The translations under genes and the position numbers were made by a program. Positions 1 to 19,045 of a stretch of DNA of 64,000 nt are shown piece by piece. The DNA is from a virus. Each line of letters starts with the position of its first letter. Within the stretch, counting starts at the first letter, position 1. The DNA lies in IMG/VR virus record IMGVR_UViG_3300034018_000240, one strand, 5' to 3'. The notes under the pieces are model-generated. The model saw only the letters and a program-made list of their open reading frames with translations. It did not search any database and had not been told where the DNA came from.

Positions 1-805
1 CTGCTTTGCTATGATATACAGGAATGCCTAATGCATCTGCAATCTTTGTGACACCACAGAATACTAGAATACGCTCGTCTTTATGTTTTGCTAGAAGTTC
101 TTTAGTCTTGTTAAGTTTTGCAAGACTGTTCTGAACAATTCTCATCCTAGCAAGACGTAAAAACATTGTACTCTTTCTCTGTTTCTCCATCTGATCTATA
201 ACCCAACCATAAGCATCAAATTGCTTCTTTTCAGTTTTCCATTTGCCTTTATAGTTGTTGTCCACTTTGTTATCTAATGCTACAGAAATCACTTTGATCT
301 CGTAGTCTGTAATAACACCTTCTTTAATTGCTTGTTCTATGGGATATGTAGCTAAAACTGGTAGCTTTAACTCTAGTCCTAATGTTTCTTCTGTATTTGA
401 TGTTAAAGTTCCTGTAAGACCTAACACTCTTTTGCAACATAATTCCTTTACAGCCTCTATTTGTGCTTCTGAGAGTAAATGTATCTCATCAAGTACAACT
501 AGGTCATAAAAGCATTCTGTGTGCTTTTTAATAGATAAATGTGTAGTATAAGTTATATTACTATTCTTATACTTTCTAGTTAAGAAGTCTTGTTCCCATG
601 CTGATTTAATCTTTAGATCAGGGTAGGCGATCAATATACTAATATCCTTGGGTAATTGCTCCAATATATTGATAGTTGTATATATTTTTCCAAACCTAGG
701 ACATAGATTAAGAATACCAGACTCTTCATGATCTAAAAATATCTTAGCAAACTGTTGCTGCCTCTTATCTCGTAATGTAAGGGTGTGGGGCTTTTGGTTT
801 GCCAT
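1..805 (-). CDS. SF2 (DEAD/DEAH-type) helicase; the 3' part of the gene (C-terminal part of the protein) lies beyond the window start
   Basis: Manual minus-strand translation from the ATG at 805 gives MANQKPHTLTLRDKRQQQFAKIFLDHEESGILNLCPRFGKIYTT...CFYDLVVLDEIHLLSEAQIEAVKELCCKRVLGLTGTLTSNTEE...ILVFCGVTKIADALGIPVYHSKA. It contains a DEIH motif II and an LGLTGT motif III-like segment. The ORF continues past position 1 and is absent from the ORF track because it is truncated. Confidence 0.6.
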   Translation of the reverse strand, partial: MANQKPHTLTLRDKRQQQFAKIFLDHEESGILNLCPRFGKIYTTINILEQLPKDISILIAYPDLKIKSAWEQDFLTRKYKNSNITYTTHLSIKKHTECFYDLVVLDEIHLLSEAQIEAVKELCCKRVLGLTGTLTSNTEETLGLELKLPVLATYPIEQAIKEGVITDYEIKVISVALDNKVDNNYKGKWKTEKKQFDAYGWVIDQMEKQRKSTMFLRLARMRIVQNSLAKLNKTKELLAKHKDERILVFCGVTKIADALGIPVYHSKA

Positions 806-975
806 AGCTTATAATTGTTGTAAATGACCAAAATAAATACTCAGCATTCACAGCTACGTATGGGTCATGTTTTTGTATGTTGTTCATCAAACTGACTGTA
901 GGGAACAACACCACTTGCCACCAATGGCTCTTTTTAGTGGGTAATGTATTATACATTTTGAAGTTTAATTTCATG

Positions 976-2037
976 TTACTTGTTTAAAAAGAAAGTTTTA
1001 TTAATAATCTCATTGTATACGTTTTCATTCATATACTTTACTTTTGGTAGCTCTTTGAACATACCAATCTGACCTAGGAAACCTAGACCAATTCTTACAT
1101 CATCCTCACCATATGAATTCTTAATGAGTCTTAATGATCTAAAGTACTTTGCACCATACTCATCTCTAAGTTTGTTCAGGTCATATCCTGATGGGTCTTG
1201 TACTTTATATCTCATAGGGTCAAACAATGCTAGGACAACGTCAGCATCGTTCTGGGTTTGTGAACTGTCAGCAAAGTCTTCCAACTGTGGTTCTACATCA
1301 CCATTCTTTAGTCTCATTGGACTAGAAATGTCTCTGTTGAACTGACTGACAATCACAGGACTATAACCATACATATCTCTAGCATATCTAAGCTCATCTG
1401 ACATTTTATCTATCAGTTGCTTCTTAGTAGGATAGTCTTTTGTTGGTTTCAATAAACCTATATGATCAATAACAACAATAGTTAGTTCACTCTCATTATT
1501 AGGAATGTATCTTTTGTTATACTGATCTACATCTTCTATTACACCATTTTGTAATGCATGTTCTTTTAGATGTTTAGATATGCCTATTGGGTTATCTGGT
1601 CCATCAATGATTGTAATGACATCTTTCATGTTCTCTAAGTAATCTTCATACATCAAGAATAGATCGTGCTCATCACTCGTCATCTTCTCTGTCCAACCTA
1701 ATAGCTTTGGCACAGGAATAATTACTCCTTGGTCTAGAAATATCTTTCTACTGACCCACTTGGCATACTTGTACGTTCTACTACGCTCCATTGAGCGATA
1801 TATGATGCGTAACTTCAGTTCTGGAGGTTTGTTATCAATGTACCAATCAAATGGATTTAAAACATAAGCGTCATCAATGAAGCTAGTTTTACCTGATCCA
1901 GTGAGACCACCCACAAGTGTGTACATAGACTTCCTAATGCCAATGTATCTGTTCAATCTATCAAAGCCCATAGGTATACCATTGTTTCTACCATCTAGGC
2001 CAGCTTGAACTTCTCGTTTTAAATCTTCAAAACTCAT
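976..2037 (-). CDS. DnaB-family (RecA-fold) replicative DNA helicase, helicase domain only
   Basis: 353 aa. Walker A in TLVGGLTGSGKTSFIDDA, Walker B-like TIVVIDHIGLL, DnaB H3-like IVSQFNRD, H4-like ADVVLALFD. Motif order and spacing match the DnaB/T7 gp4 helicase family. Confidence 0.7.
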   Translation of the reverse strand: MSFEDLKREVQAGLDGRNNGIPMGFDRLNRYIGIRKSMYTLVGGLTGSGKTSFIDDAYVLNPFDWYIDNKPPELKLRIIYRSMERSRTYKYAKWVSRKIFLDQGVIIPVPKLLGWTEKMTSDEHDLFLMYEDYLENMKDVITIIDGPDNPIGISKHLKEHALQNGVIEDVDQYNKRYIPNNESELTIVVIDHIGLLKPTKDYPTKKQLIDKMSDELRYARDMYGYSPVIVSQFNRDISSPMRLKNGDVEPQLEDFADSSQTQNDADVVLALFDPMRYKVQDPSGYDLNKLRDEYGAKYFRSLRLIKNSYGEDDVRIGLGFLGQIGMFKELPKVKYMNENVYNEIINKTFFLNK

Positions 2038-2660
2038 ATGTCCATTCCTTTAATTGGTTCGTCAGCCTCTTTAATTACCACACCCTGATTGATAAGCTCT
2101 ATATAGTTTTGAAATGAGCGTTGATTCAAATAAGTAAGACTGCCTTGCATGTAACTTAATCTATTTGTACCTGTCTTGAAAGAATTCTCTTTCTTTTGCG
2201 TCACTTCATATTCTAATGCTGCTATGAGCTGATCAACTGTGTATTCTCCTTCAGCAAGGATAGCATCTAGTTTTAGTTGGCAGTCATCTTTGTAAACACG
2301 CAGTGTTCTACCACCTGAGAAGCTTTTACCTTTATGTGTAAAGATATCAGTTCCTGGATATGCAGCCCACCATCTCTCAAACTCAGCAAAGGTTTGTGTT
2401 TTCTTTACAATCTTACTAGTCTTAGCACGTGTGTTCATGAATTCCAATAGATTCCTACCAAGGACTGTAATCTTAAATTGCTCAGACACTAATCCTTTTC
2501 TACGCAATGTCTGACATAGCATATCTGTCTTTGCTCCTCCTTCAGCTAATGTCTTGATGTCAAATTCTTCATCTATCAGCTTGAGAAGAAATACCATGTC
2601 TAATGTATATCCATCTTTGAGTAGTTGCTCAAAATGGTAAGGGGTTACTTTGATGTTCAT
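2034..2660 (-). CDS. hypothetical protein (208 aa), translationally coupled to the downstream helicase gene (ATGA overlap)
   Basis: Long ORF in the same orientation as neighbours. The 4-nt stop/start overlap with the DnaB-like gene suggests a functional link (possible loader/accessory factor; speculation). No recognisable motif. Confidence 0.45.
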   Translation of the reverse strand: MNIKVTPYHFEQLLKDGYTLDMVFLLKLIDEEFDIKTLAEGGAKTDMLCQTLRRKGLVSEQFKITVLGRNLLEFMNTRAKTSKIVKKTQTFAEFERWWAAYPGTDIFTHKGKSFSGGRTLRVYKDDCQLKLDAILAEGEYTVDQLIAALEYEVTQKKENSFKTGTNRLSYMQGSLTYLNQRSFQNYIELINQGVVIKEADEPIKGMDI

Positions 2661-2874
2661 GTTCTCTGTTTAGTATTTTGTCTTTATCAATTACTACTAT
2701 CTGAGCAGGCAGTTTTATTCTTCTAAACTCCTCTTCAAGTATCTGTTGTGTCTCTTGCAAATATACTAAATCTTTGAGAGATTCTCTCTCCCAATCTTCA
2801 TTAATTTGTAGATTTTTCATCTTTTTTATATTGTGCGTTGTTCCAAAAGAATGGACATGCCACTGTAATAACAC
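2629..2874 (-). CDS. small hypothetical protein; probable true start at ATG 2820 (MKNLQINEDWERE..., 63 aa)
   Basis: The ORF-track start is a GTG directly preceded by an in-frame TAG. An ATG lies at 2820. No motifs. Confidence 0.25.
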   Translation of the reverse strand: MLLQWHVHSFGTTHNIKKMKNLQINEDWERESLKDLVYLQETQQILEEEFRRIKLPAQIVVIDKDKILNREHEHQSNPLPF

Positions 2875-3028
2875 CTAGTGTTACATCATGTTCATCTAAC
2901 ATCATGTTCACTTTATATGGGGGATCTGAAAAATATGATTGTCCCAACTCATCAGGAATTGCTGTATATCTATGACAATTTAGTCTTAACATACAACTAC
3001 CACCTTTACAACATGAAATATCTGGCAT
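2801..3028 (-). CDS. small Cys-rich protein (75 aa) containing an FSDPPY motif
   Basis: MPDISCCKGGSCMLRLNCHRY...SYFSDPPYKVN. DPPY is the catalytic motif IV of N6-adenine/N4-cytosine DNA methyltransferases, but the ORF is far too short to be an MTase and no FxGxG motif follows. Confidence 0.3.
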   Translation of the reverse strand: MPDISCCKGGSCMLRLNCHRYTAIPDELGQSYFSDPPYKVNMMLDEHDVTLGVITVACPFFWNNAQYKKDEKSTN

Positions 3029-3029
3029 C

Positions 3030-3305
3030 TTATTTGTTTTTATGATTAATGTATATACGTAGTGTCTTATGTGTATCTTCTATCAAAGCTATCACTTTGG
3101 CATTCTTATCCCAATTGTAATACTTAACTACACCATCTTCTACAACTTCAATTTGTGTAACTAGTGTAGTGTTTAATATATTTTTACTAGGTAGAGGTAG
3201 TTTGTTTAGGGATATGTCCCTTGTACTCATTGGTCTGTGATAAGGATATTTTCCTGACATATGTTTAGTTTTAATTATTCTGCTGCATAACCAAAGAATA
3301 TCCAC
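3030..3305 (-). CDS. hypothetical protein (91 aa)
   Basis: ORF in the co-oriented early block; no motif. Confidence 0.3.
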   Translation of the reverse strand: MDILWLCSRIIKTKHMSGKYPYHRPMSTRDISLNKLPLPSKNILNTTLVTQIEVVEDGVVKYYNWDKNAKVIALIEDTHKTLRIYINHKNK

Positions 3306-3832
3306 TCACCATCTCTTTCTGTTGGTGATTTTTTGTATGTTATCTTAGCTACTAAGTTGTCACCTTTCTCTAAGAACTTCTTGATTACTATTGATGTAGT
3401 TACTTGATACTTTTCTGTATATTTACGAGCGTCTTTTACAGCATCCCCTTTTGTATCCCATGAACCAATAACATGATCACCACGTTGAACAACATATTTA
3501 AGTACCCACTTCTTCGTACCTGGTGTAACTATGTGCTCCACTTGAGATTGAGTCTTGTTCTTATTACCTACAGGTTGTACAACACATATAGCTGAACAAT
3601 CACGTTTGTTCATAGCATGACTATCAAATCTGTCACGTATGTAAGCAGATACATCATTAAACTTACTTTTCTTATATGCTTCTGTTTCATCTCTAAATCC
3701 ATGGGTAGTACTAATTGTACCATTGTAGCCATCTTGATGACCATACTCAAGTTCAGCTTCTTCACAAGCTCTGTTATATGCTTCTTCTGCTGTTTTACCA
3801 CCATATCTTGCTTTAAATTGACATGCTCCCAT
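3275..3832 (-). CDS. hypothetical protein (185 aa)
   Basis: Long ORF, co-oriented; no recognisable catalytic motif. Confidence 0.5.
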   Translation of the reverse strand: MGACQFKARYGGKTAEEAYNRACEEAELEYGHQDGYNGTISTTHGFRDETEAYKKSKFNDVSAYIRDRFDSHAMNKRDCSAICVVQPVGNKNKTQSQVEHIVTPGTKKWVLKYVVQRGDHVIGSWDTKGDAVKDARKYTEKYQVTTSIVIKKFLEKGDNLVAKITYKKSPTERDGEWIFFGYAAE

Positions 3833-3843
3833 AATTATTTATT

Positions 3844-4029
3844 TTATCTGCCATTCCAGGCAGGTGATGTAAATGAAATTCCTCCTTCTGTTCTATGATT
3901 GTTATTAATCTGATTGTCAGATGGTTCATCGTCTTCTTCATCTTCCCAATCGCAATGATCCCTACATTCAGGACAAATGTCTATCTCAGGCATACGAGAG
4001 TATGCCCCACAACATGTTGAATAAGCCAT
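3844..4029 (-). CDS. small zinc-ribbon-like acidic protein (61 aa)
   Basis: CC..(x)..CPEC..HC cysteine/histidine spacing followed by the acidic run DWEDEEDDEPSD. Confidence 0.4.
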   Translation of the reverse strand: MAYSTCCGAYSRMPEIDICPECRDHCDWEDEEDDEPSDNQINNNHRTEGGISFTSPAWNGR

Positions 4030-4040
4030 AAATTTTAGTT

Positions 4041-4442
4041 TTATTTTACTTCAATGTGATTCCTACCATCATTCCAATAACTTATGTCACCATACCATAC
4101 AAAGATTTCTTCGTCTGGTTGTATGAGCTTTGTAGCAACAAACTCAAATGTGTTGCGTTCTATGTTGGATCTCCAAGCAGCGTTGGCTGTGTCTGAATGA
4201 TTATAGAATGAACCAAACCCACCAGCTACCACTTGTTTCTCCCATCCTGATCCACCACCCTGTGGCCAATTGAATCTGTAATCTATGACACAAGGAGAAA
4301 CTTCTCCATTCTTCATACCTACATCAAAAAAGGGACACTCTTCTATGATGTCCCCTTCAAATATTACCTTGTCTGCAAATACTCCCCAGCCATGTATGCT
4401 GCTTGGAGCCATGTAGACTTTTGTTGATTGATAGATACGCAT
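4041..4442 (-). CDS. SET-domain protein lysine methyltransferase (minimal viral vSET-like, 133 aa)
   Basis: GWGVFADKVIFEGDIIEECP matches the SET N-region (compare chlorovirus vSET GYGVFARKSFEKGELVEEC, quoted from memory). GFGSFYNHSDTANA matches the NHSxxPN pseudoknot motif. EEIFVWYGDISYW matches the EELxxxYG post-SET motif. Size fits minimal viral SET proteins. Confidence 0.8.
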   Translation of the reverse strand: MRIYQSTKVYMAPSSIHGWGVFADKVIFEGDIIEECPFFDVGMKNGEVSPCVIDYRFNWPQGGGSGWEKQVVAGGFGSFYNHSDTANAAWRSNIERNTFEFVATKLIQPDEEIFVWYGDISYWNDGRNHIEVK

Positions 4443-4444
4443 AA

Positions 4445-4717
4445 TTAATCTTTTATTCTCAAACCAAACTGTAAGTCAAACCATTGAAAGTTTGCCTCAG
4501 CTCTTGATTTGTTTATTTTAAATACTTTCTTCATTAATGGAATAGCGTAAGCTTTAAACTGATCATGTTGTTCTTGTGTCATAGTCCATTTGCTATACCA
4601 TTCTTTAGTCATAAATGCTTCTTGTGTAGACTTACCAATCATTCCTAATTGATAGTCTACTAAATGATCACCTATGTTCTCTCTATTTATCTTTGCCATG
4701 CTTTTTGATTTCTTCAA
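4445..4717 (-). CDS. hypothetical protein (90 aa)
   Basis: Co-oriented ORF, no motif. Confidence 0.4.
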   Translation of the reverse strand: MKKSKSMAKINRENIGDHLVDYQLGMIGKSTQEAFMTKEWYSKWTMTQEQHDQFKAYAIPLMKKVFKINKSRAEANFQWFDLQFGLRIKD

Positions 4718-4907
4718 TTACTTCATCCCAGTATTGTGGATCATTATCTAGTCCAGAACCCATCCACATATCTTTGGCTTTTGTATCCATTATTTCATGT
4801 GCTGTTAGCGATGCACAGTCTGCTGCTTTATATATATCTCCAACTATGGATAAATGATTGAGTACGAGATATGCTGCTTTTACTTTTGCTTCCATTGTGT
4901 GTCTCAT
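4683..4907 (-). CDS. hypothetical protein (74 aa)
   Basis: Co-oriented ORF immediately upstream of polB (1-nt stop/start overlap); no motif. Confidence 0.4.
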   Translation of the reverse strand: MRHTMEAKVKAAYLVLNHLSIVGDIYKAADCASLTAHEIMDTKAKDMWMGSGLDNDPQYWDEVIEEIKKHGKDK

Positions 4908-6859
4908 TAGAATAAACTCATTTGATTAGGATTAACAATAACTTTACGTTTCTTACCTTCTAGTTGTATCTTGTGTATTATGCGTTCAGCACGCTCAATA
5001 TAATATGCATGATTGATGTTGTCCAGAGGATGATCTGATGTTAGATGATTACATACATGCATCACCCAATCACCTGCTTCCACTTGTGATACATCAACAG
5101 CTGTGCTATCTGAATTCTCGTTCTTCACCTTCAGTAGCTTCTCTCCTGTATTAGATACATAATATCTAATCAGCTTGTTATAGACTGTCTTCGTCTCTTT
5201 GCTGTGACCTTCGTAATGAAAGTCTTTACTAGCTTTCTGTCTGAGACAAAAGTCATATATATTTGTATGATTGCGAATGGTATCAGCCACAGGCACGTCA
5301 TTAACAAAAAAATGCTCAAGTGCAATAGGGACAACCCTAGCACTCTTATTTTTGTGTAGTTCAAAGTCTGTAAGGAAGTCACCCTTCTTTTTGATTTCGC
5401 CATCTGTTTTGATTGCTAGATAGTCATTTACTGTCGAGAATATAATCTTAGCATAGTCTGTACGTTCTAACTCATAACTGGTTAGATCCATCCACCACTT
5501 GTTAATCTCATGCATCTTCTCAACTTTGTCTTTGTGCACCTTGATTGTCACACCATCTGTATTTGCAGATATAATGTTTATACCAGCTAATTCATATGCT
5601 TCGATGAGCATCAGAAGACTTAGTTCTCCTGTGATGGTTGTGAACATTGTGAGCTGTCTGTCATAGATCCAAGACTGCATGTCAGAAGACTTACCATAAA
5701 CTGAATTGACTGCGAGTTTGAGTGCTCCAACAATACCTTTAATCTTTTTATCCTTTTTAGCAAGAGGCTTGAGCTCCAATCTTTTATCAAACATGGTTTT
5801 GTATCCTCTAAGGAACTCAGGGCCCAAATGATGAGGATATTTACCATTATTAATAATGATAGCAGGGTAATAACTGGATACATCCCAATCCACAATAATA
5901 TAATCAGCATCAGCTTCAAATATCTTAGGCTTGTTCTCTGTATGTAAGCCACCCTTTGCAAAAGTGTATATGTTGTCATAAAACTCTAATGATTCTTTAA
6001 ATTCATCTTTGATAGTTAGTTTCTCTTTGCTAATTGCTTTTAAGAACTGTTGTAGTTTTGGTGTCTGGAATGTAATGTAATCAGCAATACAATGTCTCAC
6101 CTTTACTTCAGTTCTAAACAAGCCTTTCTTTGGTAAATCAGAATATAATATGTTCTTTTCTTGACAATAGAACTTCTTAATCATCTCATCACCAATCTTA
6201 CTATCAGAATAGTTTAAACATGGTATGCCAAACTCTTCTTCAATATCTTGTCTGAGCTCTATCTGATTATTGCCCTTATACAATGGATGCTCAGTTTGAC
6301 CTATTGTTACCTTGTAGAACTCATAGGTAGCCATAACATCATTCTTACAATAGTCTTTAGTCAGTTGAATCTCTTCATCTGTCATGTTAATCTTTGTATG
6401 ATGTATAGGCATCTCTTCAATGTTCTCTAGATCCATCTCAAACTCTAGTCGTTTCAGTGAGACCATTCTATTCTTGTTATCATAGTGGTTCACTCTGAAT
6501 ACATCTATCTGCTTAAGTGTAAGCCATTCTTCTCTGTACTCAGGAAATACATCATAGTTAGCATCATGGATAATATCAGCAGCCTTTTGTGCTATCTTAG
6601 CAGCTGTCTCAAGAGCTGTGAGCTCATGCCAGTTTTCATAGTTACGCAAGATCCACTCAATCACTTGAGAGTCAAAGCGTAAGTTATTATAACCAACCCA
6701 ATAGTATTCAGGATGTTGTTCAATAAATCTCATATACCCATCTAGTTGGTTCTTATCCTTACTCACTTCAAACTCTGTATAAGTTTTGCTCCCAGGATTA
6801 TATATGCCAATGAGGAATAACTCCTGCATTGTCTCAATATCATAGATGAGTATATTCAT
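4907..6859 (-). CDS. family B DNA polymerase with 3'-5' proofreading exonuclease (650 aa)
   Basis: Exo I IYDIET, Exo II YNNLRFD, Exo III YCKNDV. Pol motif A DWDVSSYYPAIII (DxxSLYPS), motif B KLAVNSVYGKSS (Kx3NSxYG), motif C-like ISANTDGV (variant of YxDTDS). Compact size and motif B resemble phi29-type protein-primed polymerases. Confidence 0.85.
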   Translation of the reverse strand: MNILIYDIETMQELFLIGIYNPGSKTYTEFEVSKDKNQLDGYMRFIEQHPEYYWVGYNNLRFDSQVIEWILRNYENWHELTALETAAKIAQKAADIIHDANYDVFPEYREEWLTLKQIDVFRVNHYDNKNRMVSLKRLEFEMDLENIEEMPIHHTKINMTDEEIQLTKDYCKNDVMATYEFYKVTIGQTEHPLYKGNNQIELRQDIEEEFGIPCLNYSDSKIGDEMIKKFYCQEKNILYSDLPKKGLFRTEVKVRHCIADYITFQTPKLQQFLKAISKEKLTIKDEFKESLEFYDNIYTFAKGGLHTENKPKIFEADADYIIVDWDVSSYYPAIIINNGKYPHHLGPEFLRGYKTMFDKRLELKPLAKKDKKIKGIVGALKLAVNSVYGKSSDMQSWIYDRQLTMFTTITGELSLLMLIEAYELAGINIISANTDGVTIKVHKDKVEKMHEINKWWMDLTSYELERTDYAKIIFSTVNDYLAIKTDGEIKKKGDFLTDFELHKNKSARVVPIALEHFFVNDVPVADTIRNHTNIYDFCLRQKASKDFHYEGHSKETKTVYNKLIRYYVSNTGEKLLKVKNENSDSTAVDVSQVEAGDWVMHVCNHLTSDHPLDNINHAYYIERAERIIHKIQLEGKKRKVIVNPNQMSLF

Positions 6860-7125
6860 AATTGTTTATTTTTGTTAGTCCATCCATTTGCCATGTGTTC
6901 TTAAATGCCAAAATCTATGGCTTAACACTGCAACTATTATACCCCAAAATGTATCAGCTTCATATGAGCCTTCTTTAACTATTAGTTTCATATTATCTTT
7001 TATATGTTTTAATGTATTCTTTAATACACCATTTAATCATGTCCCATAGATAATATCTTTGTTTTGATTTAGAAAGCTTGTGTAAGCTTTCATAATAACT
7101 AAAATATTCATTCATAATTAGAAGT

Positions 7126-7392
7126 TTATTTCTCTTTTACTGATTTCTTAGCTGTTTTCACAGACTTTTTACTCTTATTAGAAATATAGTTCTCTTTACT
7201 ATCTAATAATGTAAGAAACGCTGCACTAATAACATCATATAAATATTTATCTTCAAGCATAGCTGATGCAAATGATGCAGCTAATATTGTTTTATCACCA
7301 TCGTCATCATATAATGTATGTACAGTGCCATCACCTATAGACATAAAGAAATGAGCTTTGAGCTTTGCTATTTGTGCTTTACTTTTTGCCAT
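7126..7392 (-). CDS. hypothetical protein with lysine-rich C-terminal tail (88 aa)
   Basis: C-terminus KSKKSVKTAKKSVKEK is histone-H1-like/basic; possible nucleic-acid binding (speculative). Confidence 0.45.
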   Translation of the reverse strand: MAKSKAQIAKLKAHFFMSIGDGTVHTLYDDDGDKTILAASFASAMLEDKYLYDVISAAFLTLLDSKENYISNKSKKSVKTAKKSVKEK

Positions 7393-7476
7393 ATTTATCT
7401 TTTAAACGTTGATAAACATAAGTTACCATATATGCCCAGCATATCACTGCTAAGACTATTTGAATGTAGAATAAAA

Positions 7477-7686
7477 TCATAAATTTATATTATATCTTTC
7501 TAATGAGATGTTCTTACAGAATCTAATCTCTTTGTTTGTTAATGTCCATATTTGTCCATCATCCATAGCACATGTAAATAAAAGGTTATGCTCCTGGCTA
7601 TAATCTATAACCAAAAAAGCATAACCTTCCATTTTATCAGATACCCTTACTATTGGTATCATTGGATTTAATTGCAGAATCATCAT
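7477..7686 (-). CDS. hypothetical protein (69 aa)
   Basis: Small co-oriented ORF. Confidence 0.3.
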   Translation of the reverse strand: MMILQLNPMIPIVRVSDKMEGYAFLVIDYSQEHNLLFTCAMDDGQIWTLTNKEIRFCKNISLERYNINL

Positions 7687-7781
7687 CTTTATTTGTATTA
7701 TCGTCTATAAATGGGGCATTTATCCATTCAACTATGATCCATACCCAAACAAGTAATACAAAGATAATAAAATAAATCATG

Positions 7782-8021
7782 TCAATAGTTTTTAAATCTA
7801 ATAAGTTTATACTCATCAGAGCTGATATACATATATCTGCGTCCTTTGATGTGTAATCTCTTAGATGGTTTATAATTTGCTTTCACAGCAAATATACTAT
7901 CTATTAGTTTAGAACAAGAATTAATTGTTCTTCTATAAGAAGAATCTTGTTGGTCTGGTTCGTACACTGTAATTGTATGTGTGCAATGTGGTTTTGCACT
8001 AAAGATTAGGCTGTAAGACAT
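7782..8021 (-). CDS. hypothetical protein (79 aa)
   Basis: Small co-oriented ORF; start preceded by CCAACACACATG, which resembles the AACACAC upstream motif of the 9485 and 9907 genes. Confidence 0.3.
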   Translation of the reverse strand: MSYSLIFSAKPHCTHTITVYEPDQQDSSYRRTINSCSKLIDSIFAVKANYKPSKRLHIKGRRYMYISSDEYKLIRFKNY

Positions 8022-8039
8022 GTGTGTTGGTATTAGTGG

Positions 8040-8348
8040 TTAAAAGAAGAATGTCATACCTGTTTCAGATATCTCTATCTTTGTAGGCTTTCTAAACGTA
8101 ACAGATCTTTTAAGAGGCATCTTTGTAGATACTGTCTTTGTCATAACTGGTTGACGTCTAGTGCGTTGTGGTGCCATGTCTAACATTTTAATGTAAACAC
8201 CATTAACTGGTCTGTTAAGACTGTTAGCTACAAACTTTGATAACTTAGCCATGGACATAGGCTTTGCAGTCTTTTTGTTGTCCATCATCATTGTCTTGAT
8301 TGTTCTTAATTCCTTCTTGGAATAGTTGTTTGATCCTTTCTTTCTCAT
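8040..8348 (-). CDS. hypothetical basic protein (possible later start near 8252-8291)
   Basis: Overlaps the upstream ORF by about 100 nt as drawn. K/R rich. Confidence 0.25.
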   Translation of the reverse strand: MRKKGSNNYSKKELRTIKTMMMDNKKTAKPMSMAKLSKFVANSLNRPVNGVYIKMLDMAPQRTRRQPVMTKTVSTKMPLKRSVTFRKPTKIEISETGMTFFF

Positions 8349-8646
8349 TTTGCTTTATTTTTTTGTTTAGTAAATACTGTTTTCTTTTAATTCTAGCTTC
8401 CTTTCTTTTCTTATTATGTTTCTTATTAATAGGTCCAGCTTGTTGCTGTCTCAATATTTGTTTTGGTGTTGTATCAAGACTAGTTAGCGTTTCACCTATT
8501 TTAGCTGATAAAGCTGTTCTAGGTTTTAATGGTAAAGGTATATTATGATGACTCATATGACCAGTATCAACACTTAAATCAATCTCTTTCACCAAACGTG
8601 GAGGGTTTTTAATCCTTCTCTTTCTTGTATTTCCTTTTAATATCAT
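8245..8646 (-). CDS. hypothetical highly basic protein (133 aa)
   Basis: KKHNKKRKEARIKRKQYLLNKKIKQNEKERIKQ low-complexity basic region. Sits immediately downstream of the 8671-8697 terminator, so probably the first gene of a new transcription unit. Confidence 0.35.
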   Translation of the reverse strand: MILKGNTRKRRIKNPPRLVKEIDLSVDTGHMSHHNIPLPLKPRTALSAKIGETLTSLDTTPKQILRQQQAGPINKKHNKKRKEARIKRKQYLLNKKIKQNEKERIKQLFQEGIKNNQDNDDGQQKDCKAYVHG

Positions 8647-8670
8647 ACGCTCTTCTATTTTATGTGTAAT

Positions 8671-8697
8671 AAAAAAGCCCTACATTTCTGCAGGGCT
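8671..8697 (-). terminator. rho-independent terminator for leftward transcription
   Basis: Minus-strand reading AGCCCTGCA-GAAA-TGTAGGGCT (9-bp stem with one G-U, GNRA tetraloop) followed by TTTTTT. Lies between the stop of 8717-8977 and the start of 8245-8646. Confidence 0.55.
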
Positions 8698-8716
8698 CTC
8701 GCTTACTAACCACACA

Positions 8717-8977
8717 TTAACCTAACCTTAATTTATTATCGTCCCATAATGCACTGACATTTAACTCTTTACACCATTGGTTGAACTTTTCACGCTCTGT
8801 AGGTGTAAATGGTTTGTTAATCTTTACAGTGATTTTGGGTCTGTCTTCTGTCTTTTGCTTGTTTTTAAATAATTCTAAGATATTTCTCATAGCTATTTCG
8901 TTTTGAATGTTAATATTATTCTGTTTCATGGTCTGCATCATTTGGTTCAGGATCATATTCAGTGAGGTCATCTTCAT
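8717..8977 (-). CDS. hypothetical protein (start probably at an internal Met, about 8935-8971)
   Basis: Co-oriented ORF followed by the intrinsic terminator. Confidence 0.35.
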   Translation of the reverse strand: MKMTSLNMILNQMMQTMKQNNINIQNEIAMRNILELFKNKQKTEDRPKITVKINKPFTPTEREKFNQWCKELNVSALWDDNKLRLG

Positions 8978-9485
8978 CTAAATCATCCTCCCAATCCTCA
9001 TCATCATCATCATCGTATTCATGCTCATCCACAAAACTTACATGTCTAATAGTCACCTTATCATGAAAAAAGACTACATTTCTATGTATACCTTCTTCAT
9101 CTTCAGAGTCAAATACTTCCAATGCTATATCACCATTCTCACCATCTTCACCATAAACATAGGCATTAATGATTTGAACTGTGAGGTCTTCCAAGTCATC
9201 AGAACTATCACCTTGGTCCCACCAACCTATTTGGTCAGGTGTTGCAAGGATTTCTTCTTTATCATCCTTATTCTGTGTTGGCATAACAATGTATGGCTCA
9301 ACTGGTGCACCATTGAAAGCAATGTAGCTTTCCATATCTTGTGGTATGTGTGTTAGTTCATGGAGTTGTAGGTATTCATATACCTGTCCATAAACCACAT
9401 CCTTTTGCTTTGATGCAAACCACATGCCTTTCTCTAGTTGTCTAGGCATATATGATTTGAATACAAGTTTAGCTAGTGTAAACAT
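8916..9485 (-). CDS. extremely acidic protein (189 aa; C-terminal about 60 residues almost entirely D/E)
   Basis: C-terminus FDSEDEEGIH...HEYDDDDDEDWEDDLDEDDLTEYDPEPNDADHETE. Start codon preceded by AAAAACACACGATATG. Confidence 0.5.
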   Translation of the reverse strand: MFTLAKLVFKSYMPRQLEKGMWFASKQKDVVYGQVYEYLQLHELTHIPQDMESYIAFNGAPVEPYIVMPTQNKDDKEEILATPDQIGWWDQGDSSDDLEDLTVQIINAYVYGEDGENGDIALEVFDSEDEEGIHRNVVFFHDKVTIRHVSFVDEHEYDDDDDEDWEDDLDEDDLTEYDPEPNDADHETE

Positions 9486-9498
9486 ATCGTGTGTTTTT
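9486..9498 (-). promoter_or_regulatory. conserved AAAAACACACGAT element abutting the start codon (minus strand)
   Basis: Minus-strand reading AAAAACACACGAT-ATG. Confidence 0.3.
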
Positions 9499-9628
9499 AG
9501 TGTATGTTAGCAAATATAGGTTAATTAGTTAATATAAGGACCCAGCTAGGGGAAGCTGAGCCCTATATATCTCACACAAACTAACCACTAATATTGTATT
9601 GTTATAAAGTCAGGTAATTCGTTCATGG

Positions 9629-9907
9629 CTAAAGTGTGTTAGTTAATTTCTCTTGTTTATATTCTTCCACTGCTATTTTAAGCTTCTCTCTTTGTTGATG
9701 AGCATAATCTTCAGTGACAAAACTAAGCTCCATCGTGTTATCTGTTCCTGGTTCAGAACAGCGTCCACCATACTTAAGCTTACCTAAATGTCCCCAAAAG
9801 TACATATCTCTAACCATCTCAATGGCTTCGAGTTCGTCTTCTGTCTCTCTAATAATCTTATAACCACTCAAGTTGTTGTTGTCATCCCTAATTAGTTCTA
9901 GTTTCAT
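9629..9907 (-). CDS. hypothetical protein (92 aa)
   Basis: ORF preceded by TAAACACACGATTATG, the same upstream motif as the 9485 gene. Confidence 0.45.
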   Translation of the reverse strand: MKLELIRDDNNNLSGYKIIRETEDELEAIEMVRDMYFWGHLGKLKYGGRCSEPGTDNTMELSFVTEDYAHQQREKLKIAVEEYKQEKLTNTL

Positions 9908-9920
9908 AATCGTGTGTTTA
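9908..9920 (-). promoter_or_regulatory. conserved TAAACACACGATT element abutting the start codon (minus strand)
   Basis: Minus-strand reading TAAACACACGATT-ATG; near-identical to the 9486 site. Confidence 0.3.
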
Positions 9921-10258
9921 GAATGTGTGTGTAAAAAGCGAATATATAGCCTAATGTTGCCTCAGCTGTATATTCTTATGTGTATGTCATAACGCAACAA
10001 ATAAAATCCCTCTGTACTCAAATGTATAATCTGTGGTTCAGGCTCATACGTCCTTTATGATAGTCCACCCTACCTCTATGTCTAGACCATAGATTAATTG
10101 ATTATACATTTGTCTATCCTTGGGAAATAGAAATGGTACATTAAATGATTAAATAGCTGTATTACAATTCAATTACCTCCAAGCAAATAAGCTTGATAGG
10201 ACGTAATAGGTCATGCATAACCTTTTACAACTATTTAATCAATATAATAAAGAGCAGA

Positions 10259-10498
10259 CTAATTGCCTGCTCCAATATCCTGAACAAAATAGAACTCACC
10301 ACCATGAATGAGTCTAATACCACCATATAATATACCATCTATATGAACAAACTTATCCAACACACCTTGTATTGGCAATTCCATAGACTTAATACTATCA
10401 ATAGAGACTTGTTCACTCTCTATAAAGAAATCATCCTTACTAATAGGACTAATGTTATTGCCAAATAATGTATAGGCAAGTTGTTGTGCGTTATTCAT
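10259..10498 (-). CDS. hypothetical protein (79 aa)
   Basis: Isolated ORF flanked by AT-rich intergenic DNA. Confidence 0.4.
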   Translation of the reverse strand: MNNAQQLAYTLFGNNISPISKDDFFIESEQVSIDSIKSMELPIQGVLDKFVHIDGILYGGIRLIHGGEFYFVQDIGAGN

Positions 10499-10660
10499 AT
10501 AAATGCTATTTAATGCTATATATATTGTATTGTATAGCGTGAATTAATGTATCTTGAAAAGATAGCTAAAAGGGCCTATTAAGCACACACCTCTTCAAAC
10601 ATTCACACGAAATATATTGATTATCAGTGTGTTATATTGTCTGAAGTCTTGATGTTGTAT

Positions 10661-10685
10661 AAAAAAGGGGGCACGAGGCCCCCTT
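10661..10685 (-). terminator. rho-independent terminator for leftward transcription
   Basis: Minus-strand reading GGGGGC-CTCGT-GCCCCC followed by TTTTTT. Starts 3 nt after the stop of the 10690-11097 gene. Confidence 0.6.
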
Positions 10686-10689
10686 AATG

Positions 10690-11097
10690 CTAGTAAGCAG
10701 CTAGTTCTTCGTAACTAACAGCTTGCTTAGCAGTGCTATCAATTACAAATTCTTCTTCTTCACCACCTTTACCAACTGGTGCACAGATTGTAGTGATCTT
10801 ACCATCAAGGCTTTCACAAATGTTAAGCTTCAAAATGGCAGCAATCACGTCTCTTTTAGGTGCCCCATTATCAAGAGCGTTCTTCACAGTCAAGCTAACT
10901 CTCTTACTTAATGGACAAGTGGTGCTTGTACCATCTTTTAGTGTTAATACCATTGACATTGCTTTGATGACACCATCATTGAACCTGCTGATAGTACCTG
11001 GACAAAACTTAACGCTTCCACCTGCGTGAAGACTTGCAACTGTTCCCAATTCAGTTAGCTTAGGAGTGCTAACAAACTCTTTGTACATTAGTGCCAT
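10690..11097 (-). CDS. hypothetical protein, first gene of the leftward early arm (135 aa from MALMYKEFVS...)
   Basis: The ORF track extends to 11199 through the G-rich regulatory repeats. The Met at 11097 is the plausible start. The gene is insulated by its own strong terminator. C-terminus GGEEEEFVIDSTAKQAVSYEELAAY is acidic. Confidence 0.5.
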   Translation of the reverse strand: MALMYKEFVSTPKLTELGTVASLHAGGSVKFCPGTISRFNDGVIKAMSMVLTLKDGTSTTCPLSKRVSLTVKNALDNGAPKRDVIAAILKLNICESLDGKITTICAPVGKGGEEEEFVIDSTAKQAVSYEELAAY

Positions 11098-11119
11098 TGT
11101 TTTTCGTTTTAGGCTGTTA

Positions 11120-11570
11120 ATTAATAGGGGGGATGTGTCGATCCCCCAATTGTAGGAGGGGTGGCAAGCTGGAAGTACCCTCTCCTCCCATGGACACAAT
11201 AGGGGTAGGGGGTATGTAAAATTTTTGGTAGGGGGTTGTTAATTGTTCCATGTGGAACATTCTGTCTAAGCAATTGAAGACTAGGGGGTTAGCTGGCCCA
11301 AGTGTTAAATGTTGTGTCACACTTTTTCAAATATTTGTGACAGATTTGGCAAGTTATAACAAGTCTATATTCTGCCAAAAGTCAAGCTATAGCTTTACCC
11401 TAGGGGATGTTTAGTCAAGGGATAGCTTTACATAATGTGTCTTATTATACCCATAAGCATATAGTTTGGTCTTTATAAGGGACATTATATCTTAGGGCAT
11501 ATAAAAATAAATTTGGTGGGTATAAATATTTACCTGTATCTTTGGGGGGGATTTAGGGGGGGCCCCATCT
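11120..11570. repeat. divergent regulatory hub with TAGGGG(G) iteron-like repeats, short palindromes and G7 tracts; candidate early promoter/operator region and/or replication origin
   Basis: TAGGGG(G) copies at about 11125, 11152 (variant), 11200, 11205, 11229, 11282, 11401 and 11554. Inverted repeat GGGGGAT-GTGTCG-ATCCCCC at 11128-11147. Palindrome TGTTCCA-TG-TGGAACA at 11244-11259. GGGGGGG-ATTTA-GGGGGGG-CCCC at 11544-11566. Transcription polarity switches here. Confidence 0.5.
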
Positions 11571-11601
11571 AATACCTCTCTATTAATTAAAGCTTTGATA
11601 T

Positions 11602-11844
11602 ATGGTAGTATTATTACTTGGTTGTATTGTTGGTCTCTTGAGTGTGATTGTAGTGGTATGGGGGTTTGTACACTTTGAGGAGTGGGAGATAGGGATAGAG
11701 TTTCTACCTAAACATTATAACAACTTTGAGCTAGGAATATCGAATAGAAACTACGAGCTGACAGATGGAGGACTAGAGCAAGAGCTTAGAATAGGTCTGT
11801 TATTATTCACCTTTTTAATCATGTTTAGGAGATTTGATGCATAA
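11602..11844 (+). CDS. small hydrophobic (membrane) protein (80 aa)
   Basis: MVVLLLGCIVGLLSVIVVVWGFV... N-terminal TM-like segment. First ORF of the rightward arm; could be spurious. Confidence 0.3.
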   Translation: MVVLLLGCIVGLLSVIVVVWGFVHFEEWEIGIEFLPKHYNNFELGISNRNYELTDGGLEQELRIGLLLFTFLIMFRRFDA

Positions 11845-11907
11845 TATAGCATTAACTTTTATAATAACTAAAATAGTTATTTGTAGATCGTCCAGATATA
11901 CATACCT

Positions 11908-12273
11908 TTGTATCAACTAATTATGGAAGCAAAACCAATTGTACAACGACTAAAGACTTCAGTCAATGACAGTATTGTCATGGCTGAGAAGTATTATAGA
12001 ATCTTGTCAGCTGTCAATGACCTGAAGCTTACAAAGAGGGAGATACAATTGATAGCCTTTGCTGCTATAAAAGGGAACATCTCTTATGCTAATATACGTA
12101 AGGAGTTTTGTGAAAGATACGACAGTACGTCCCCAGCCATAAATAACATTATCTCCAAACTAAAGAAGATGGGGATATTTGTAAAGGATGGGACAAAGGT
12201 GAAGGTTAATCCCATCATCTTGCTCAACTTTGAGAAAGATCTTGTATTGCAAATAACTCTAGCACATGGATAA
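11908..12273 (+). CDS. hypothetical early protein (121 aa)
   Basis: Co-oriented ORF at the start of the rightward arm. Confidence 0.45.
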   Translation: MYQLIMEAKPIVQRLKTSVNDSIVMAEKYYRILSAVNDLKLTKREIQLIAFAAIKGNISYANIRKEFCERYDSTSPAINNIISKLKKMGIFVKDGTKVKVNPIILLNFEKDLVLQITLAHG

Positions 12274-12652
12274 GCCTATAAGTATGTCTGTCAAGGACTA
12301 CCTTGTTAGGACCCTTGCTGTGAAGATGATGATTTCTGAGAAGACAATTGAGACAGTGATAAACCACCAGTTTCAATCTGCCAACGAGGCGATGGACACA
12401 AATAACAGTATTGAAATCTCTGGGTTTGGGAAGTTTTATTTCAATGAGAAGAAAGCCAAGAAACGTCTAGAAGACTTGACTAGGAAGAAAAACCTAATGC
12501 TTGAGTTCCTAGCCAGTGCTGAAACCTCAGAACAAAAGAAACGTTCCTCTCAGGTGACACTAGAAAAAACAGAAGCTCTGATCAATTTACTAAAAAGTAA
12601 AATTATATATGAAGATCAACTTCTCTCAGATTTACGAGGGCTGGAAGAATAA
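12266..12652 (+). CDS. HU/IHF-like (DNABII-like) DNA-binding protein, N-terminal similarity only
   Basis: MSVKDYLVRTLAVKMMISEKTIETVINHQFQSANEAMDTNNSIEISGFGKFYFNEKKAKK parallels the HU pattern (helix-helix then GFGxF...R..R). The RNP arm motif is absent; the C-terminus is charged and coiled. Confidence 0.45.
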   Translation: MDKPISMSVKDYLVRTLAVKMMISEKTIETVINHQFQSANEAMDTNNSIEISGFGKFYFNEKKAKKRLEDLTRKKNLMLEFLASAETSEQKKRSSQVTLEKTEALINLLKSKIIYEDQLLSDLRGLEE

Positions 12653-12956
12653 CCTGTTCCCAGCTGATGACATGAAAGAACGCATTAGGGAAATTAGCCA
12701 ACAACGTATGGCTATTTGTGATACCTGTGAATGGTGTTCTGAAAACAGACCTAAGAAACCTCGAAGGTTTGATAAGCATTGTACACATTGTGGGTGTGTT
12801 CTATCAGCTAAGACTAGGTGTCTATCTTGTAGCTGTCCTATAGAAAAGTGGGGAGCAGAGATGGAATCACGAGAGGAAGAAGAACAATTAATACAAACAG
12901 TATATGGAAAACAGGGAAGTGAAAATTCAGAAGATTCCACTGGACAGACTAATTGA
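12609..12956 (+). CDS. Cys-rich zinc-finger protein (probable start at Met 12672)
   Basis: CDTCEWC...(x)...CTHCGC...C..CSC gives four CxxC-type pairs. Acidic low-complexity C-terminus. Confidence 0.4.
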   Translation: MKINFSQIYEGWKNNLFPADDMKERIREISQQRMAICDTCEWCSENRPKKPRRFDKHCTHCGCVLSAKTRCLSCSCPIEKWGAEMESREEEEQLIQTVYGKQGSENSEDSTGQTN

Positions 12957-13161
12957 GACTTTAGTTAACCTTTATAACCAGGGAATAGACTATATTGATA
13001 TATCTGGAGTACCAGGTGTTGAGTTTGATAGAATGGCTATTGTCTTTACAAAAGACTATATGACAGAAGAAGGAAAGAAAAACTTTGGAGAAGACAGTGA
13101 GTTAGACTTGGAGATTGGTCCAAGCAAACTAACAGATGACGATATAAACCAGTTAATATAA
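12904..13161 (+). CDS. hypothetical protein (85 aa)
   Basis: ORF overlapping the previous gene by 53 nt; no motif. Confidence 0.35.
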   Translation: MENREVKIQKIPLDRLIETLVNLYNQGIDYIDISGVPGVEFDRMAIVFTKDYMTEEGKKNFGEDSELDLEIGPSKLTDDDINQLI

Positions 13162-13165
13162 TACA

Positions 13166-13450
13166 ATGAGTAAAAAGACTCACTATACAGAAGTGATATC
13201 TATATTACAAGAACTAAATAAAGACTTCCCTACATACAATTTGGGCAGACACTTAGCTACAGCTCTTGCAGACTATGGTGACATTTGGGGTATAACAGAT
13301 AAAGAACTTGCATTTGCTCTAAGTAAGTATAAGAGTGAGATAGAGATGGATGTACCTCACACAGATGAATCTGAGTTAGAAAAGATTATAAAAGAAGGTA
13401 TGGACCTTGATAACATCCTGAAGGAGGAGGAAGAAGATGGCGACTATTAA
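13166..13450 (+). CDS. hypothetical protein (94 aa)
   Basis: Co-oriented ORF; acidic C-terminus. Confidence 0.45.
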   Translation: MSKKTHYTEVISILQELNKDFPTYNLGRHLATALADYGDIWGITDKELAFALSKYKSEIEMDVPHTDESELEKIIKEGMDLDNILKEEEEDGDY

Positions 13451-13769
13451 GAAAACTACATACGTAAATACAGAGCTTGAATGGGCAGAAGTACAGCTAA
13501 AGTCTTGGAAAGCATACGTTGATGCTAATCCACTACATGAATTGAAAGATAGGATTGAGTGGAAACCTACAGCTAAAGGAGGAATGTTACCTATGGTCAT
13601 AGCCTCTATTGAAGCTCAAGGTAAGTTTGTCCAAGAGACAATGAAAAACTACCTAGCATTGGTAGAAGTGGTAGATAAGTTAAGAAACATGGAAGAAGCT
13701 AAGGTGGAAGTGAGAGGAAAAGGTGAATTATCAGGAGCTGCTGCTGAGTTCTTAGCAAATAGAAAATGA
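13437..13769 (+). CDS. hypothetical protein immediately upstream of terL; positional candidate for the small terminase subunit
   Basis: 110 aa, overlaps the terL start by 4 nt. Only position supports the TerS idea. Confidence 0.45.
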   Translation: MATIKKTTYVNTELEWAEVQLKSWKAYVDANPLHELKDRIEWKPTAKGGMLPMVIASIEAQGKFVQETMKNYLALVEVVDKLRNMEEAKVEVRGKGELSGAAAEFLANRK

Positions 13770-18396: not shown

Positions 18397-18926
18397 TGTT
18401 TGATAAACTGATTGAGATAATAACTAACTGGTGGTTACAACTAACTCCAGTTATTATTGTCAGAGACTATGAAGGAGCTGTATTACTAAGGTGTGGAAAA
18501 TTCTACAGTGTTCTTGAACCTGGACTACATTTTAAGATTCCTTTGTTTGATGAGGTGATAGATCACCATGTAGTAACAACTACCCTTAGTCTTGATGCTC
18601 AATCTTTATACACCTTGGACAAACAAAACATTGTTGTCAAGGGAGTTGTAAAATACAAGATAGCTGATGTAAAGATATTCCTACTTGAGGTATTTGATGC
18701 ACAAGATGCATTGTCAGACATGTCTCAAAGTATAATAAAAAACGTTATTATGTCAATGACCATGGAGGAATGTACAGATCAGGAACTTGACAACACTTTG
18801 ACAAAGAAAGTTAGAGTGGAAGCTAGGAAATGGGGAGTTGAGGTTCAACAAGTTACACTTACAGACCTTGCCCCAATCAGAAGTTATAGGTTTATAAATG
18901 ACAACTTTCTTAACAAATTAGATTAG
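18396..18926 (+). CDS. SPFH / band-7 (stomatin-prohibitin-flotillin-HflK/C) domain protein
   Basis: Hydrophobic N-terminus (LIEIITNWWLQLTPVIIV), then VLLRCGKFYSVLEPGLHFKIPLFDEV matching the SPFH core (compare stomatin VLEPGLHFLIP), and a C-terminal ARKWGVEVQQVTLTDLAP block. Confidence 0.7.
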   Translation: MFDKLIEIITNWWLQLTPVIIVRDYEGAVLLRCGKFYSVLEPGLHFKIPLFDEVIDHHVVTTTLSLDAQSLYTLDKQNIVVKGVVKYKIADVKIFLLEVFDAQDALSDMSQSIIKNVIMSMTMEECTDQELDNTLTKKVRVEARKWGVEVQQVTLTDLAPIRSYRFINDNFLNKLD

Positions 18927-19036
18927 AGTAAAAAATATTAATGCTATATTATATTGAATAATGGTCAATATAAAGGCTCCTCTCTTTGCTATTAACTTAA
19001 GTTACTTTACTTTTACATACAAAACCAATTAAAACT

Positions 19037-19045
19037 CAACTACAT
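19037..19045 (+). promoter_or_regulatory. conserved CAACTACAT element abutting the start codon
   Basis: aaaactCAACTACATATGg. The same 8-9-mer is flush against the ATG at 22109 and 32164. Confidence 0.35.

Follow-up and report, generated by a model that had tools for sequence, protein, structure and literature searches.

A predicted minimal SET-domain methyltransferase gene carried as a dispensable cassette in the replication block of a crAss-like phage

The window analysed here is the whole 64,000-nucleotide stretch of viral DNA held as IMG/VR record IMGVR_UViG_3300034018_000240. At positions 4041-4442 it carries a gene for a small SET-domain protein, predicted to be a methyltransferase, which is the subject of this study. 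According to the list of open reading frames (ORFs) and its translation, an ATG-to-stop ORF of 133 codons fills this interval on the minus strand; the plus-strand frame of the same interval is riddled with stops and was rejected. A preliminary description of the DNA had given the length of 133 amino acids, which is borne out, and had left the strand unstated. Motif conservation was read from an alignment of the protein with 46 homologues (47 sequences), and a second alignment included vSET, the SET protein of Paramecium bursaria chlorella virus 1 (PBCV-1), S. pombe Set7 and cellular SET proteins. The gene and its motifs, with S-adenosylmethionine abbreviated to AdoMet, are as follows.

4041..4442, minus strand: SET-domain methyltransferase gene (predicted), 133 amino acids plus stop; ATG at 4442-4440, stop at 4043-4041
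4383..4391, minus strand: motif I, G18-W-G20 (GxG); G18 and G20 invariant in the 47 sequences, vSET, Set7 and cellular SETs
4260..4280, minus strand: Y55-RFNWPQ block; Y55, R56, F57, N58 and P60 invariant
4182..4202, minus strand: motif III, NHSDTAN, N81-H82-S83-x-x-x-N87 (NHSxxxN, AdoMet/pseudoknot loop); N81, H82 and N87 invariant
4092..4112, minus strand: motif IV, EEIFVWY, E111-EIFVW-Y117 (ELxF/YDY-type); E112 and Y117 invariant, Y117 being the catalytic Tyr
4062..4079, minus strand: C-terminal Y122-W-N-D-G-R127; YW also in vSET, DGR specific to the phage clade and invariant

Residues 18-118 of the protein cover the whole Pfam SET profile PF00856 (positions 1-105 of 105) with E 4.2e-13 and a score of 50.1 bits, where the cut-off is 22.4, and the protein consists of a single SET domain without pre-SET or post-SET modules. 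No match was found in PHROGs, NCBIfam or PADLOC, so these libraries give neither a functional label nor a link to a defence system. The three SET signature blocks reported in the preliminary description were located as GWG, NHSDTAN and EEIFVWY and their coordinates were verified. Seven residues (G18, G20, Y55, N81, H82, N87 and Y117) are invariant in the 47 sequences and across vSET, Set7 and the cellular SETs; among them are the tyrosine and the Asn-His pair of the SET active site, and GxG is the AdoMet-binding turn of SET enzymes. The equivalent residues in the phage protein and in vSET are, respectively, G18-W-G20 and G15-Y-G17, Y55 and Y50, N81-H82-S83...N87 and N69-H70-S71...N75, Y117 and Y105, and Y122-W123 and Y109-W110; Y122-W123 too is invariant in the 47 sequences. 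By analogy, the strand carrying YRFNWPQ is likely to be that of the lysine channel and substrate groove.

Structure prediction is in agreement with a SET fold. Of the two findings that the preliminary description named as refuting, lack of a predicted SET fold and lack of the conserved Tyr/NH pair, neither was obtained. The AlphaFold2 model of the protein has a mean predicted local distance difference test score (pLDDT) of 88.7 and a predicted template modelling score (pTM) of 0.83. The best match in a Foldseek comparison with the PDB is vSET (3kma, E 1.2e-8, template modelling score 0.85 when normalised to vSET), followed by PFL0690c and Set7 and then by MLL, EZH2, SETD8, NSD1 and PR domains; there were 332 PDB matches at E ≤ 1e-3, and all 50 listed are SET or PR domains. 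The fold was judged by the overall similarity of the model. Among solved structures the closest in sequence are PBCV-1 vSET (1n3j, E 9.6e-8), Plasmodium PFL0690c (4rz0) and S. pombe Set7 (5h6z), and the best structural match in BFVD is A0A6J5L8Y2 (E 5.8e-12, 34% identity).

A database of 5.8 billion proteins holds 284 clusters homologous to this SET protein, nearly all of 129-137 amino acids and 55-67% identical, one of them with 224 members; the sources often call these proteins "SET domain-containing protein". Identity of the window protein to the 120 clusters listed is 55-94%. A profile search of 1.84 billion representatives returned 5094 proteins at E ≤ 1e-3 and 31 at E ≤ 1e-30, which indicates that the close family is tight and nested in a very large population of mini-SETs. 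Comparison with the closest relatives, the copies at four IMG/VR loci (L001-L004, 91% amino-acid identity), gave a synonymous divergence (dS) of 0.26, a non-synonymous divergence (dN) of 0.05 and a dN/dS of 0.19. With 284 homologous clusters and this ratio a chance ORF can be dismissed, and the gene is genuine and subject to purifying selection. The encoded protein is acidic, with an isoelectric point (pI) of 4.8 and a net charge of -7, and the median pI of the phage clade described below is 4.9.

The gene was found at 89 loci in IMG/VR, and ORFs were clustered around 80 of these with 6-8 kb in view on each side. In a neighbour-joining (NJ) tree the 80 IMG/VR copies and the window protein are monophyletic, with no cellular sequence inside. 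As defined here, members of this phage clade share at least 50% identity and invariant DYRFNWPQ and YGDxxYWxDGR blocks and occur on phage contigs, and the window protein is one of them. Two of the invariant blocks are confined to the clade, namely R56-F-N-W-P-Q61, immediately after Tyr55, and D125-G-R127, after the YW pair. By analogy, both segments would line the peptide-binding groove, and invariant groove blocks specific to the clade suggest one substrate common to all of its members.

The preliminary description held that the protein resembles vSET more than bacterial SETs, a statement that is only partly right. vSET is the nearest solved structure by both sequence and fold, and it shares the C-terminal YGDxxYW. 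By contrast, the whole-protein scores of bacterial and archaeal mini-SETs are higher (64-77 bits, 35-41% identity) than that of vSET (48.9 bits, 31%), and the phage clade of the NJ tree excludes both. Distances from the window protein are 0.34-0.39 for the myovirus copies, at least 0.69 for cellular SETs and 0.77 for vSET, and the phylogeny, in placing the protein in a phage-only clade, argues against descent of a vSET-like kind. By these comparisons the phage protein is neither vSET-type nor bacterial-type in its descent, and its overall sequence is somewhat nearer to the prokaryotic mini-SETs.

Like the phage protein, vSET (A612L, 1n3j/3kma) is virus-encoded and minimal (119 versus 133 amino acids) and lacks pre-SET and post-SET modules. 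The same catalytic residues align, and the short YGDxxYW end common to both is also Set7-like. The phage clade differs in having its own YRFNWPQ and YWNDGR blocks and an insertion of 7-9 residues after the Tyr55 strand. vSET acts as a homodimer. It is packaged in the virion, trimethylates lysine 27 of host histone H3 and has been linked to the shut-off of host transcription (PMC7019647).

The prokaryotic mini-SETs are the nearest non-viral sequences. They are single-domain proteins of about 120-135 amino acids with motifs I-IV as in the phage protein, and they are acidic too (median pI 4.5). More than 576 cellular SET loci were found in GTDB, taking one genome per species; the best are only 33-41% identical to the window protein, against 55-67% among the phage copies, and come from Patescibacteria, Saprospiraceae and other Bacteroidota, Gammaproteobacteria and methanogens. 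The cellular proteins end in NYN...(V/L)WF where the phage proteins have YGD..YWNDGR, and have DYYFxWG in place of DYRFNWPQ at the Tyr55 strand. Their genes are chromosomal with lineage-specific neighbours, which we take, from reading by eye, to be LemA, XseB and TPM-domain genes, and none falls inside the phage clade. Near the cellular mini-SET genes no conserved partner was found beyond lineage-specific synteny. For one prokaryotic SET protein, Go1-SET of Methanosarcina mazei, in-vitro methylation of MC1-alpha, an archaeal chromatin protein, is on record (PMC3980110, PMC6776556).

SET proteins have already been annotated in tailed phages, including UniProt A0A6J5L8Y2 and others ("uncultured Caudovirales phage"), the Stenotrophomonas phages Moby, Mendera and Ps15, and the huge phages LR756501 and LR756511. 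These are likewise single-domain proteins. Those of the Stenotrophomonas phages are only 27-29% identical to the window protein (E ~1), and Ps15 ORF62 appears only among proteins of unknown function (PMC9025141). Of 50,697 deposited phage records, the only ones with a copy from the clade are those of a 735-kb huge phage (LR756501/LR756503; 45% identity). Labels of the Joint Genome Institute (JGI) already name metagenomic phage proteins of this sort SET.

Judged by sequence, the window belongs to a crAss-like phage. The major capsid protein at 20365-21918 matches PF23898 (Crass_capsid, E 1.3e-27), the large terminase TerL at 13766-15808 is phrog_6681 and the portal protein at 15808-18396 is phrog_6547. 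The closest TerL proteins in deposited phages are those of Leptolyngbya phage Lbo-JY46 (40%), Cellulophaga phages phi17:2 and phi4:1 (32%) and gut crAss-like phages (26-28%). Megablast of positions 1-20000 of the window against deposited phages gave no match, so this is a phage without a close sequenced relative. From the crAss-like type one would expect a bacterial host, which lacks histone H3.

The SET gene lies within a leftward block of genes that spans about 11.3 kb to 0.8 kb, between genes for a polymerase and a helicase. For comparison, 80 sibling loci were fetched with the window polymerase as probe; their polymerases are 72-95% identical and their contigs extend up to about 115 kb. 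One of them, L162, defines the extent of the cassette given here with the neighbouring genes.

4907..6859, minus strand: DNA polymerase, upstream in the leftward block (phrog_1252, E 6.5e-144)
4445..4717, minus strand: g90, small basic conserved ORF (pI 9.7) at the upstream border of the slot; adjoins the polymerase in nearly all sibling loci
4030..4442, minus strand: cassette of 413 bp, made up of the 402-bp SET ORF and an 11-nt spacer; exactly missing in L162 (junction DNA alignment)
3844..4029, minus strand: g61, small acidic Cys-rich ORF directly downstream of SET; variably present among siblings
976..2037, minus strand: DnaB-like replicative helicase, downstream in the block (Pfam DnaB_C, E 8.5e-15; phrog_19)
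12266..12652, plus strand: HU/IHF-like DNA-binding protein (PF00216, E 1.7e-9)

The preliminary description had placed a minimal SET-domain methyltransferase in a phage replication module. This setting is correct, since the gene lies between the polymerase and the helicase, on the same strand as both, with gaps of only 2 nt to g90 and 11 nt to g61, and no terminator-like site was found on the minus strand from 10251 to 700; we reasonably infer that SET is co-expressed with the replication genes. The same description called the ORF at 12266-12652 HU-like, which the PF00216 match confirms. g90 has no match in Pfam, PHROG, NCBIfam or PADLOC, and g61 has no family match in the family-library searches. 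A sigma-70 promoter scan gave 37 sites as against 52 in shuffled sequence and is therefore uninformative for this phage. The sole convincing terminator-like site of the leftward block is a strong hairpin at 10665-10685 on the minus strand (8-bp stem with 6 G-C pairs, then a T run), just 3' of the ORF at 10690-11199, which may part an early unit from the replication genes.

The SET gene is absent from all 80 sibling loci, including the 51 in which both flanking genes are seen (0/51). The sibling backbone reads polymerase, g90, a variable interval, g185, further genes, g208 and helicase. In L162, where the polymerase is 95% identical to that of the window and the two upstream genes are 100% identical, the g61 ATG follows 4 nt after the g90 stop (L162:8400-8408). 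Likewise, L170 and L171 are SET-less counterparts of L001. Of the 51 siblings, about 17 have nothing in the slot between g90 and g185 (8-16 bp), while the others have assorted small ORFs of 58-126 amino acids without assigned function there; in L163 the slot is filled (7763-8389) by a 208-residue 2-oxoglutarate (2OG)-Fe(II) oxygenase (PF13759, E 1.1e-20). SET occupies the slot in five loci, the window and L001-L004. The g90-g185 interval is thus a hot spot at which these related phages carry small accessory genes. Because the same slot is empty or otherwise filled in 51 SET-less siblings, and L162 is an exact SET-less allele, the SET gene is a dispensable accessory single-gene cassette that stands outside the replication machinery.

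The clade was found in at least four unrelated genome contexts (A-D), and SET is the only protein family present in all four. Phage hallmark genes were confirmed for A and B; C and D are assigned to phages from their IMG/VR classification and from the families that they have in common with B. Context A is crAss-like and comprises the window and L001-L004. The commonest, context B (about 60 loci), consists of uncultured contractile-tail phages with tail sheath, tail tube, SNF2 helicase and a family-B polymerase that shares only 23% identity with its counterpart in Salinibacter phages; here SET is the opening gene of the helicase unit and points away from the tail genes. Context C is an accessory island on contigs of 68-274 kb, with WavE-like, sulfotransferase, DUF454, MoxR-type ATPase, GTP cyclohydrolase I and radical-S-adenosylmethionine (radical-SAM) genes. 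Context D, on contigs of up to 295 kb, is a cluster of glycan genes encoding a DegT aminotransferase, PglD-like acetyltransferases, GT34-like and FkbM proteins and a PF11397 GlcNAc-transferase. The SET gene has thus moved horizontally, as a single gene, among unrelated phages, and the spread of a conserved clade over unrelated contexts points to one conserved substrate of general use to phages.

Several further features of these loci were observed. The cluster of context D (L043, L058, L062, L065, L067/L068 and L070, about 8 kb on each side of SET) recalls the glycosylation gene sets of giant viruses. In the context C island, the GTP cyclohydrolase I and a radical-SAM/SPASM protein (L028:14720-15346 and L028:2635-3663) are of gene types tied to phage 7-deazaguanine DNA modification. 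Adjacent, divergent SET paralogues whose stop and start overlap by 4 nt occur in some contractile-tail phages (L029:5072-5862, L053:5620-6422, L055:7597-8399, L057:7597-8399 and also L022), and SET-SET fused proteins are present in the representative database (P0126, P0129). Because vSET works as a dimer, these paired or fused SETs may be heterodimers or enzymes of two specificities. SET is also fused to other domains in GT9+FkbM+SET (P0127), Methyltransf_24+SET (P0137) and PhyH+SET (P0124); these are real ORFs, each on a single contig and pointing in mixed directions, and they were dropped as a guide to the substrate.

The explanation that we favour, and that we hold with slightly better than even confidence, is that the window encodes a catalytically competent minimal SET methyltransferase of the phage clade, borne on a dispensable cassette and likely to act on a conserved basic host protein. 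As far as residues and motifs can tell, it is well supported that the protein would be an active AdoMet-dependent protein methyltransferase, most likely specific for lysine. It would probably be made in the infected cell alongside the replication proteins, because the slot lies in the polymerase-to-helicase block. AdoMet would most likely be bound via the GxG and NHSxxxN loops, and Tyr117 together with Tyr55 would methylate a lysine held in the groove of the YRFNWPQ strand and the C-terminal YWNDGR; the protein may form a dimer, as vSET does. The substrate would be a conserved basic host protein, nucleoid-associated or concerned with transcription or translation, that is altered to the advantage of the phage.

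We put the chance that the substrate is such a host protein at about even, and the support for it is indirect. A host substrate is favoured because the gene travels alone between phages of unrelated virion architecture with no other shared gene nearby, and because the copies stay 55-67% identical with invariant clade-specific residues in the presumed groove; that the substrate is basic would fit an enzyme as acidic as this one. A substrate encoded beside the SET gene is less likely. vSET is a natural functional model because it is an effector that acts on a host chromatin protein. Its substrate is histone H3, whereas the host of this phage is expected to be a bacterium lacking H3, so the phage protein must have a different substrate. 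That the enzyme is a mobile effector of host takeover, which methylates a lysine of a conserved nucleoid-associated protein, RNA polymerase subunit, ribosomal protein or translation factor, is a tentative proposal to which we give somewhat less than an even chance.

Several points weigh against the favoured explanation. The gene neighbourhood offers no partner or substrate, and the view was limited to 6-8 kb per side, so that a shared phage-encoded substrate may possibly lie further off. Two of the four contexts, and the fusions, place SET with glycosyltransferases, FkbM, sulfotransferase or 2OG oxygenases, and such glycan-type neighbours could point to a different process, for example modification of the virion or the cell surface. 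The SET family is not strictly lysine-specific, as SETD3 methylates a histidine (PMC11462206). The sigma-70 scan gives no timing, so that expression alongside the replication genes is presumed.

Among the other explanations, methylation of a phage-encoded protein, such as the HU/IHF-like protein that the preliminary description put forward, g90 or virion proteins, would tune the packaging and compaction of DNA or the properties of the particle; we regard this as unlikely. The presence of the HU-like gene in the window is in its favour, as is the ability of prokaryotic SETs to act on chromatin proteins (Go1-SET on MC1-alpha), and in Ralstonia an HU-like gene lies beside a SET gene in divergent orientation (PMC5390034). 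The contractile-tail phages, where the tail module directly adjoins SET and is divergently transcribed, also count in its favour. Yet L164 and L165, siblings that lack SET, carry the HU-like protein at 98% identity, and g90 is kept in nearly all SET-less siblings. The search for HU compared three queries, E. coli HupA, B. subtilis Hbs and the window HU-like protein, by phmmer with every ORF at 80 cellular and 80 viral SET loci, and it found only the gene in the window itself; within 6-8 kb of the other 79 viral loci or of the 80 cellular loci there is no HU homologue, and the four contexts have no family in common other than SET. SET could also belong to a loose modification toolkit (glycosyltransferases, FkbM, sulfotransferases and 2OG-Fe(II) oxygenases) that decorates a glycoprotein, envelope or virion component, lysine methylation being one step of a multi-step surface modification rather than a means of taking over nucleoid or translation. 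The embedding of SET among glycan genes in context D, its position next to WavE-like and sulfotransferase genes in context C, the three fusions with other domains and the 2OG-Fe(II) oxygenase in the SET slot of L163 are consistent with such a role. In the window, however, no such genes are near SET, which lies in the polymerase-helicase interval, the commonest context pairs SET with an SNF2 helicase and each fusion is on one contig only; adjacency is in any case weak evidence because accessory islands gather unrelated genes. We consider the toolkit improbable, more so than a phage-encoded substrate.

A role in counter-defence, in which SET would cap lysines on a phage protein or a host defence protein and so block a lysine-directed defence such as ubiquitin-like conjugation or disable an effector, is very improbable. 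A sporadic cassette that spreads horizontally is typical of anti-defence genes, and SET shares both traits, being dispensable, sporadic, located among the small diverse genes of a hot spot and spread between unrelated phages, although this is circumstantial. The protein has no PADLOC similarity, no known anti-defence family is nearby, no defence-related gene is linked to it, and the literature searched holds no precedent. It is hardly credible that the protein is a non-catalytic member of the SET fold, acting as a binding module or pseudo-enzyme, or a decaying remnant: all catalytic and AdoMet-binding motifs are invariant in the clade, the ORF is intact in 284 clusters and dN/dS is well below one at the value given above. 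A pseudo-enzyme and a chance ORF were both rejected in view of the invariant catalytic residues and the purifying selection.

The SET fold and the annotation of SET proteins in tailed phages are already known, and this gene is a further member. A functional study of a phage SET protein was not found in the literature searches, and the word "phage" is absent from a 2014 review of bacterial SET proteins. To our knowledge, protein lysine methylation is not among the documented chemistries by which bacteriophages modify their hosts, while ADP-ribosylation and phosphorylation are modifications used by phages in host takeover. The phage-only clade, the behaviour of the gene as a cassette and the natural plus and minus alleles make a useful comparative picture that is apparently undescribed, and sibling genomes with and without SET, the difference being exactly this cassette, lend themselves to direct comparison. 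Were the substrate a host nucleoid, transcription or translation protein, the gene would represent a new takeover mechanism and a compact methyltransferase tool of 133 amino acids; lysine methylation would then join ADP-ribosylation and phosphorylation in phages, and the enzyme would be the bacterial-virus counterpart of chlorovirus vSET. Should a host substrate prove wrong, this would be merely one more annotated SET-domain gene.

Three other proteins in these genomes are recorded here. In contractile-tail phages, a conserved protein of 512 amino acids adjoins the SNF2 helicase (L027:10197-11735 and homologues) and has no PHROG match; its N-terminal half presumably resembles Fe/Mn superoxide dismutase, as read from FNHALFWNML and DLWEHAYYL, and its C-terminal half is of no assigned family. 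The structural block of the window includes large virion proteins. It closes with an ORF of 4145 amino acids at 51161-63598 on the plus strand, which has no PHROG or NCBIfam match and, judged by position, could be a giant RNA polymerase or cargo protein packaged in the virion. In the tail region, a protein of 632 amino acids at 27208-29106, also on the plus strand, has collagen triple-helix repeats in five stretches (PF01391, E 1.2e-28) and is probably a fibre.

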